Shown: positions 31,366 through 32,936 of the stretch, piece by piece | Position numbering within the stretch: position 1 is the first letter of the stretch | Layout of the letters: the number at the start of each line of letters is the position of its first letter | From: Patescibacteria group bacterium | Lineage (GTDB): Bacteria; Patescibacteriota; Microgenomatia; Levybacterales; UBA12049 | Length of the DNA: 64,000 nt | NCBI GenBank assembly: GCA_038062115.1 | Contig: JBBTXS010000012.1 | Coordinates: 23,141 to 87,140 of the forward strand | Direction: 5' to 3' | Program-made: the position numbers and the translations under genes | Notes under the pieces: generated by a model | Database searches by the model: none | Told to the model about the DNA's origin: nothing | The model's input: only the letters and a program-made list of their open reading frames with translations

Positions 31366-31797
31366 ATGCCAAAACTCAAAAGTCATGACCCTGAGCGAAG
31401 TCGAACGGGTCAAAAGTTAGAATGGCAGGAAGCAAAAGAGGTAAAAAAAAATATAGAAAATATTCTTAAGGTTTTAAATTTGCCTCACATCGATTCTTCT
31501 AGAATTTTTTGTTTTAGAACCAAAGGATCAAAATCAAGATCATATGCACGCATTTGGTCTATGCCAAAAATCTTTCAGACAGTTCTTAATGTAAAACCAG
31601 CTTATGTAATAGAAGTGATAGCCCGGCATTTTGATAGATTAGATACAGACGGAAAGAAAAAAGTATTAATTCACGAACTTTTGCATATTCCTAAAAATTT
31701 TTCTGGAGCGCTCTTACCTCACCGTAGTCGCAATCGGCATCTTGGAGCATTGGTGAATAGATTGTTTAAAGAATATAAGAAAATTTCTAATTCCTAA
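31366..31797 (+). CDS. Small HExxH zinc-metallopeptidase-like protein (DUF45/YgjP-, WLM- or SprT-like)
   Basis: VLIHELLHIPKNFSGALLPH contains HExxH plus a downstream His. It starts 10 bp after the DUF458 gene. Confidence 0.4.
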   Translation: MPKLKSHDPERSRTGQKLEWQEAKEVKKNIENILKVLNLPHIDSSRIFCFRTKGSKSRSYARIWSMPKIFQTVLNVKPAYVIEVIARHFDRLDTDGKKKVLIHELLHIPKNFSGALLPHRSRNRHLGALVNRLFKEYKKISNS

Positions 31798-31912
31798 TTA
31801 ACCTAATTTCTAAATAAATCCCAAAAACTAAGTTCCAATTGGGTTATTTAGACATTTAGGAATTGATTAGGTCAATTAGAAATTAGTAATTAGAAATTTA
31901 TATGATTACTAT
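31775..31912. repeat. First copy of a 138-bp perfect direct repeat (second copy at 32114..32251)
   Basis: Identical to 32114..32251. It spans the last 23 bp of the HExxH gene, the intergenic region, and ATGATTACTAT (the first 11 bp of the holA-like gene). Confidence 0.9.
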
Positions 31913-32115
31913 CCTGAGTTTCCCATTTTCGAGTAGCAAAATTAAAAAGCTTGATTTGACAATCTTTTTTTGAAAAAATTTAGTGCGAAACCGCACTACC
32001 GAAAGATTTCAAAGACAAAAGCTAATAGAAGAAATGCTATGGTTTCTAGCAGACTTTCGAGCCTAGAAATGGTTTTTTGCTAAAATTAAACCGCACTAAT
32101 TGGGAAACTCAGGAT
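31911..32115. mobile_element. 205-bp MITE-like non-autonomous element with 15-bp perfect terminal inverted repeats
   Basis: Terminal repeats atcctgagtttccca / tgggaaactcaggat, internal hairpin tagtgcg-aaa-ccgcacta, and no ORF. Confidence 0.7.
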
Positions 32116-32251
32116 AAGAAAATTTCTAATTCCTAATTAACCTAATTTCTAAATAAATCCCAAAAACTAAGTTCCAATTGGGTTATTTAGACATTTAGGA
32201 ATTGATTAGGTCAATTAGAAATTAGTAATTAGAAATTTATATGATTACTAT
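32114..32251. repeat. Second copy of the 138-bp direct repeat; contains the functional start of the holA-like gene
   Basis: Identical to 31775..31912. Confidence 0.9.
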
Positions 32252-32936
32252 TATTCATGGAGAAGACATTGTAAATTCAAGAAAATTTTTTATTGACGAG
32301 CGGAAAAGATCATCGTATCCAATAACGTTTTTGAGCGATAATCTTAATCTAACAGATCTTACTCAAACACTTGAGGGCGGCAGTTTGTTTGACATTAAAG
32401 ATAAAGAAATATTTATCGAAGATTTTTTTTCAAAAAAACGAAGTCAAGAATTTGATAGCATTATTTCTTATTTGCAAAAACATGGTAAAAATGTAAATAT
32501 AAAAATTTGGGAATCAAGAGAGGTGTCTAAAAAACAATTAAATAATCTTAAAAATACTACAATCAAGCTGTTTAGTCTCCCTAAACCCCTTTTTTTATTT
32601 TTGAATAAACTCGCGCCTCATAACAGTAAAAGACTGATCTATCTCTTCCATAAAACACTAGAAAGCATAGAGGCTGAATTAGTATTTTATATGATGATTC
32701 GCCAATTTAGATTATTATTGGCTATTTTTGGGGAATCCCAGAATAATCAAATAGACGAAATAAAAAATATACAGCCATGGCAAAAAGCAAGGCTTAAGAA
32801 ACAAGTAAGTTTTTTTTCGGAAACTCATCTTAAAAATATATACAATAAAATTTGTACTATAGAAATTTCGCAAAAGACTGGTAGTAGTATTTTGTCTCTC
32901 CCTCAAGCCATTGACTTTTTATTGCTCTCTATCTAA
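32241..32936 (+). CDS. holA: DNA polymerase III delta subunit-like protein (HolA-like, short)
   Basis: An N-terminus IIHGEDIVNSRKF and a C-terminal helical region (ELVFYMMIRQFRLLL) resemble delta-subunit features. Confidence 0.45.
   Translation: MITIIHGEDIVNSRKFFIDERKRSSYPITFLSDNLNLTDLTQTLEGGSLFDIKDKEIFIEDFFSKKRSQEFDSIISYLQKHGKNVNIKIWESREVSKKQLNNLKNTTIKLFSLPKPLFLFLNKLAPHNSKRLIYLFHKTLESIEAELVFYMMIRQFRLLLAIFGESQNNQIDEIKNIQPWQKARLKKQVSFFSETHLKNIYNKICTIEISQKTGSSILSLPQAIDFLLLSI

Follow-up and report, generated by a model that had tools for sequence, protein, structure and literature searches.

A 203-bp derivative of an IS1634-family insertion sequence between two copies of a 136-bp duplication in a groundwater patescibacterium

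Introduction

Insertion sequences of the IS1634 family usually produce duplications of 5-6 bp (PMC2266710, the 2008 revision of the IS4 and related families), and in experimentally captured transpositions of ISPfe2 in Paracoccus (PMC3281130) and of ISGka5 in Geobacillus (PMC8024623) duplications of 6 bp were found. For IS1634 and IS1549, direct repeats of variable length, ranging from 8 to 514 bp, have been described; the revision credits these long repeats to Vilei et al. 1999 and Plikaytis et al. 1998, and as of 2008 it offered no mechanistic model for them (PMC2266710). Both elements, IS1634 of Mycoplasma mycoides subsp. mycoides SC and IS1549 of Mycobacterium smegmatis, are about 1.5-2 kb long and, like the elements described below, have short terminal inverted repeats (TIRs) and a single-ORF DDE transposase of the IS1634 family.

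The stretch of DNA analysed here (64 kb, in the following called the window) contains a short element with TIRs, which lies between two identical copies of a 136-bp segment at codon 4 of a holA-like gene. Related copies elsewhere also are flanked by duplications that are long and differ in length from copy to copy (18, 18, 19, 60, 119, 136, about 186 and 316 bp, the window included), as in IS1634 and IS1549; the two sets are likened by description, 8-514 bp there (PMC2266710) against 18-316 bp here. Three differences should be noted: the hosts are groundwater Patescibacteria (candidate phyla radiation, CPR), the copy in the window is a non-coding derivative of 203 bp, whereas IS1634 and IS1549 are the IS itself, and the shortest duplications of the present family cluster at 18-19 bp. 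ISPfe2 and ISGka5 share the transposase family with the parent IS of our element, but make duplications of a fixed 6 bp. Bacterial miniature elements (MITEs) derived from IS630/Tc1-mariner transposons likewise are small, structured, non-coding and bordered by TIRs, and like them the element in the window has TA on both sides; this TA, however, is coincidental, and the transposase family is a different one. What we describe is thus a known peculiarity of the IS1634 family, met here in a lineage new for it and in a miniature element, and no new mechanism; the novelty implied in an earlier note on this DNA is preempted by IS1634 and IS1549, members of the same family whose repeats of 8-514 bp were already on record (PMC2266710).

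The direct repeat and the limits of the element

The locus comprises the following features (positions within the window).

31366-31797, forward strand: upstream gene, a putative metallopeptidase (HExxH) of 143 aa (ORF; Pfam PF18894 PhageMetallopep, 85.3 bits)
31776-31911, forward strand: left copy of the 136-bp target-site duplication, identical to 32115-32250 and found once each in L002 and L003 (empty alleles); contained in it are the metallopeptidase gene's 3' end, a palindromic spacer of 104 bp and the initial 10 nt of the holA-like ORF
31902-31973, forward strand: orphan ORF of 23 codons, MITILSFPFSSSKIKKLDLTIFF followed by a stop, in which the duplicated holA-like start codon runs into the element (from translation)
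31912-32114, forward strand: 203-bp non-autonomous IS1634-family element (MITE), its ends alignable to the IS of L049
31912-31925, forward strand: left TIR, TCCTGAGTTTCCCA, the same 14-mer as at the ends of about 80 related elements
32101-32114, reverse strand: right TIR, TCCTGAGTTTCCCA, with the conserved subterminal motif WTTAGTGCGGTTT on its inner side
32115-32250, forward strand: right copy of the 136-bp target-site duplication, from which the functional holA-like gene has its start and its native upstream spacer
32241-32936, forward strand: intact holA-like (DNA polymerase III delta-like) gene of 231 aa (ORF; Pfam PF21694 DNA_pol3_delta_C)

A perfect direct repeat of 138 nt occupies positions 31775-31912 and 32114-32251, with a spacing of 339, and elsewhere in the window it has one weak self-inverted match only. 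A perfect match of this length cannot arise by chance. Within it lie the terminal 23 bp of the PhageMetallopep/HExxH gene, the spacer of 104 bp and the opening 11 nt (ATGATTACTAT) of the holA-like ORF. The 14-nt TIRs are perfect, and in the window the two ends of the element are the sole matches to them at up to two mismatches. When the ends of about 80 related copies are compared, only these 14 nt are kept and the adjoining outer base is variable; the element therefore extends from 31912 to 32114 (203 bp) and the duplication amounts to 136 bp (31776-31911, identical to 32115-32250). The one additional identical base on each side is element sequence that matches the target by coincidence. Flanking duplications at other copies also are exact only under the limits set by the 14-nt TIR. 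From the earlier note, the perfect TIRs and the perfect 138-bp direct repeat were thus recovered at these positions, whereas the limits given there (an element of 205 bp at 31911-32115 with 15-bp TIRs, and a duplication of 138 bp) shrink to 203 bp, 14 nt and, for the target duplication proper, 136 bp.

The spacer between the metallopeptidase and the holA-like gene is one long imperfect palindrome (31781-31899, with its duplicate at 32120-32238), whose 19-nt arms are 95% complementary; the whole 136-nt segment folds with a z score of -6.7. Possible roles of the palindrome are those of a terminator, an operator or a preferred target.

Neighbouring genes

The duplicated segment begins at 31776, about 21-22 bp inside the end of the metallopeptidase gene, and reaches into the holA-like gene as far as codon 4. 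The metallopeptidase gene, with its stop at 31795-31797, has remained intact because its final 22 bp sit within the left 136-bp copy. To the left of the element the upstream gene is complete, to the right of it both the spacer and the holA-like gene are complete, so that nothing has been inactivated and an insertion at codon 4 has been harmless. The position of a short TIR element at codon 4, the intact 231-aa product of the second copy (ORF 32241-32936) and the regeneration of the gene by the flanking duplication had all been proposed in the earlier note and can be read from the sequence; the peptide ascribed there to the first copy (MITILSFPFSS followed by a stop) has to be replaced by the translated MITILSFPFSSSKIKKLDLTIFF of 23 aa. 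The protein of the holA-like gene is the same in alleles with and without the element. It matches PF21694 DNA_pol3_delta_C with 31.8 bits, just above the cut-off of 27, which makes the label 'holA-like' reasonable. In model bacteria holA is essential, and the holA-like gene of this organism probably is essential, too. A general pattern, by which long duplications would save the genes that they interrupt, was considered and rejected: the other loci are mixed, some insertions lying inside ORFs, others at their ends or between genes.

Filled and empty alleles

Exact matches to the proteins of the locus were found in groundwater metagenomes of the Hainich and in one NCBI MAG record (MEK7534346.1). 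In the following, X and Y denote the outer flanks, A the duplicated segment and B the element. The filled allele is present in L001/L005 (Hainich H41_01um_R3), which are 100% identical over 1700 bp, and in L007 (H41_01um_R2), also 100% identical, where the contig runs through X-A-B and stops after 55 nt of the second A. Two further, short contigs (L004, L008) stop 55 nt into the repeat, and such breaks are to be expected because the repeat is longer than the assembler k-mer. According to the record names, the filled contigs have low coverage (cov 2-5).

Sister sequences, whose comparison the earlier note had proposed, contain the empty site X-A-Y with a single A and no element in wells H51 (L002, H51_02um_R1) and H32 (L003, H32_02um); the flanks of the former are 100% identical, those of the latter carry two mismatches in 248 nt, both in the left flank. 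The empty site of both contigs thus holds one copy of A, the state that corresponds to a duplication arising at insertion. It should also be noted that the direction is ambiguous: recombination between the two copies of A would likewise restore an empty site, and the empty alleles may be ancestral or revertant. With perfect repeats of 136 bp, precise loss of the element by recombination is possible.

Ancestry of the element

In a scan of one genome per species, two related short elements were found, one of them in Candidatus Roizmanbacteria GW2011_GWC1_37_12; a three-way alignment revealed that both ends are common to these and the window element, while the middle differs. With the conserved end CTGAGTTTCCCAWTTAGTGCGGT as query, a metagenome scan yielded 78 loci, 32 of which contain a complete element of 1534-1559 bp, again bounded by these 14-nt TIRs and with one ORF of 484 aa, in accordance with the size and gene content of the IS1634 family (1500-2000 bp, one ORF; PMC2266710). 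This ORF (L049, 176-1630, reverse strand) matches the IS1634 family transposase model NF033559 of NCBIfam with 283.6 bits (E 3.4e-84, cut-off 100); the next family, IS1182, reaches 30.8 bits and stays below its own cut-off, and the Pfam domain DDE_Tnp_1 is matched with 63.2 bits. The name of the transposase cluster is derived from Candidatus Roizmanbacteria.

In the window element, positions 1-98 align with the left end of the L049 IS (the 5' side of the transposase gene) at 79% identity and include the hairpin at the transposase start, where the start codon GTG has become GCG by mutation; positions 170-203 align with the right end at 91% identity, and the central part of about 70 bp has no detectable match in the alignment to this IS. 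Shared ends and TIRs together identify the window element as non-autonomous and as derived from an IS1634-family IS by internal deletion; its membership in the family is by these shared ends, the element itself having no transposase ORF. The parent IS (about 1544 bp) occurs in Patescibacteria/Roizmanbacteria groundwater metagenomes, and L046, from the same well as the filled allele, is a full-length IS whose transposase is 78% identical. No full-length IS was found in the window, and no copy of the element in viral contigs.

Some further observations concern the architecture of these elements. In L049 (161-1704), the start (GTG AAA CCG CAC TAC) and the end (AAA CCG CAC TAA) of the transposase ORF share the 11-nt motif AAACCGCACTA, whose region has counterparts in the window at 31981-31998 and 32088-32098; the motif may serve in binding of the transposase or in the control of translation. 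The start codon lies within a 7-bp hairpin (TAGTGYG-AAAC-CGCACTA), and the stop codon 1 nt before the right TIR. In two contigs from Hainich H41 (L033 and L088, from about 1040 onward), the conserved right end is followed by about 1 kb without similarity to the transposase and without a second TIR, which may represent different cargo or a solo end. Fragments of IS630-like (DDE_3-type) and rve-like transposases adjoin a full-length IS copy in L011 (1528-2127), suggesting nested insertions in that genome.

Nature of the insert

By its anatomy the insert is a MITE: it is 203 bp long and non-coding, with TIRs of the IS type and a duplication of 136 bp, and no ORF of at least 40 aa is listed on either strand, the longest noted being the orphan ORF of 23 codons. 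Near-identical copies within a genome, as would make up a MITE family, were not seen: the window has one copy, and none of the 88 related loci contains a second one with the same interior. Of the designation 'MITE' used in the earlier note, the non-autonomous IS derivative thus is a safe label, whereas a MITE family is not supported by copy number, and decay in situ from a full-length insertion, instead of mobilisation as a MITE, is possible.

Other readings of the insert were rejected. An IS630/mariner-type MITE with TA duplication disagrees with the IS1634-family transposase and with the flanks of 96 unique related ends (67 + 29), which follow no TA rule and have a weak bias only, A(-5)/T(-2)/Y(-1). 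A structured RNA gene was dismissed, since no Rfam family is matched at gathering score; the fold of the insert (z -6.1) is largely due to the TIRs and the conserved hairpin at the transposase start. An internal or outward promoter was considered on account of TTGATT-17-AAAAAT, recognised by eye upstream of the former transposase start, but this is absent from the output of the consensus scan and the promoter is unsupported.

Duplications at related copies

Wherever both flanks were comparable, duplications were scored as a suffix of the left flank identical to a prefix of the right flank. Those found beside the window are the following.

L036, full IS: 19 bp
L043, derivative of 426 bp: 18 bp
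L051, derivative of 620 bp: 18 bp
L048, full IS: 60 bp
L016, derivative of 542 bp: 119 bp, 96.6% identity
L060, full IS: about 186 bp, with just 19 nt of right flank
L026, full IS: 316 bp

All these duplications of 18-316 bp, at unrelated loci, abut the TIRs exactly. The earlier note had reasoned that short duplications (2-10 bp) at other copies would make the long one a secondary event; the opposite was found, and long variable duplication is, as far as the compared flanks tell, a property of the element and not a secondary rescue event. The 119-bp pair of L016 differs by four mismatches, which identifies it as an old and real duplication and not as a collapse of the assembly graph. A duplication of 5-6 bp, typical of the IS1634 family, was seen at none of the copies.

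In three short derivatives (L009/L025, L010, L027), comparison of the flanks revealed that a duplication is truly absent. Many full-length copies also had no flanking duplication, including further ones found via the transposase (L089-L098), in which the flank pairings are swapped. In three groups of contigs (L066/L081/L083; L090/L098; L091/L095/L097), identical left flanks are joined to different right flanks through the 1.5-kb IS, indicating chimeric metagenome assemblies or IS-IS recombination, probably the former. Given these swapped pairings, full-length contigs without duplication are uninformative for scoring duplications.

The lengths look bimodal, with three duplications of 18-19 bp and five of 60-316 bp (window included). 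The contig of 2519 bp with the longest one (L026, Ga0209210_1022960) consists of an IS 3' end (123 nt), the 316-bp flank, a full IS, the same flank and an IS 5' end; it could represent a tandem amplification of IS and duplication, a circle of 1860 bp or an assembler loop. Insertion across the base of a cruciform was rejected as a general rule, since three of the five long duplications are unstructured: the fold z of the duplicated segments is -6.7 in the window and -4.7 in L060, but -1.2 for the 119-bp, -1.65 for the 316-bp and +1.3 for the 60-bp segment.

Origin of the duplication

We regard it as probable, at about 0.85, that the insert is a 203-bp MITE from an IS1634-family IS of about 1.54 kb, which was mobilised in trans and inserted with a wide stagger, giving rise to the 136-bp duplication. 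Most likely, the DDE transposase of a full-length copy would mobilise the 203-bp element in trans, and the two 3' ends of the element would be joined to opposite strands of the target at points separated by 136 bp, where a few bp are usual. Repair synthesis by the host, starting from the 3' ends of the target and proceeding with strand displacement, would then copy the 136 nt on both sides and leave the 136-bp duplication. It is from this product that we infer the wide stagger. Of the two origins offered in the earlier note, the one with cuts about 138 bp apart proved the better option, at about 136 bp and with related copies whose duplications of 18-316 bp abut the TIRs.

The structure could also have been built by homology. 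The element would first have entered at one edge of A with at most a small duplication, either directly ahead of the upstream gene's stop codon or at holA codon 4, and A-B-A would have formed later, by Campbell-type recombination of an excised circle of A and B into an empty A or by recombination between alleles with the element on opposite sides. The order IS-A(316)-IS-A-IS of L026 fits a circle or tandem of IS and flank, empty and filled alleles are found together in the aquifer, and some copies have no duplication. This route is nevertheless improbable: it needs at least two rare events at each of eight unrelated loci, each exact at both TIRs, no allele with the element on one side of A only was recovered among the aquifer contigs, and the duplications of 18-19 bp have the same geometry, but are too short for efficient homologous recombination. 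We give still less weight to an assembly artefact, in which an X-A-Y graph and foreign edges from A to B and from B to A would have been threaded into A-B-A. At 136 bp, A exceeds the overlap of 55 nt at which L004 and L008 break and hence is a collapsed node there, coverage is low, and L026 demonstrates that loops are written into contigs; yet the path A-B-A occurs in the contig of the window and in two further assemblies of different replicates, the junctions A-to-B and B-to-A must exist in the reads regardless, and other loci, also from other projects, have the same architecture, including the 119-bp pair with its four mismatches.

The second origin offered in the earlier note, in which an ordinary MITE insertion broke an essential gene (the holA-like one) that a tandem duplication of 339 bp then restored, is hardly credible. 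It would account for the repeat spacing of 339 bp and draws on holA being essential in model bacteria, but duplication of a 339-bp unit predicts A-B-A-B, whereas the second A runs into holA and not into B, and the empty allele has a single A. Moreover, an intermediate without functional holA would have to be passed, and the same exact geometry is met at non-essential or intergenic places. Insertion with a wide stagger thus remains the preferred reading.

Implications

The odd structure of the locus is explained as the signature of a known, though poorly understood, transposon family, and long variable target duplications are extended to a third lineage of the IS1634 family, in bacteria of the candidate phyla radiation. 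General caution should be taken in annotation, as insertions of this type leave duplicated ends of genes and orphan starts, which can be mistaken for tandem duplications or misassemblies. At the same time, the 203-bp derivative, its perfect 136-bp duplication and the natural empty site form a compact substrate for the study of wide end-joining, over tens to hundreds of bp of target, by a DDE transposase. Only tentatively, and with more doubt than confidence, do we suggest that the transposase of this IS1634 lineage has two modes of duplication, one of about 18-19 bp and one of tens to hundreds of bp, both on derivatives of 200-600 bp and on the full IS; if this is true, the chemistry of long duplication depends only on the transposase and on about 100 bp of end sequence. 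In the gene-dense, streamlined genomes of CPR bacteria, a long duplication could let the element persist, by rebuilding the gene ends and promoters into which it inserts, as for the holA-like gene, and the long direct repeats left behind could permit its precise loss by recombination.
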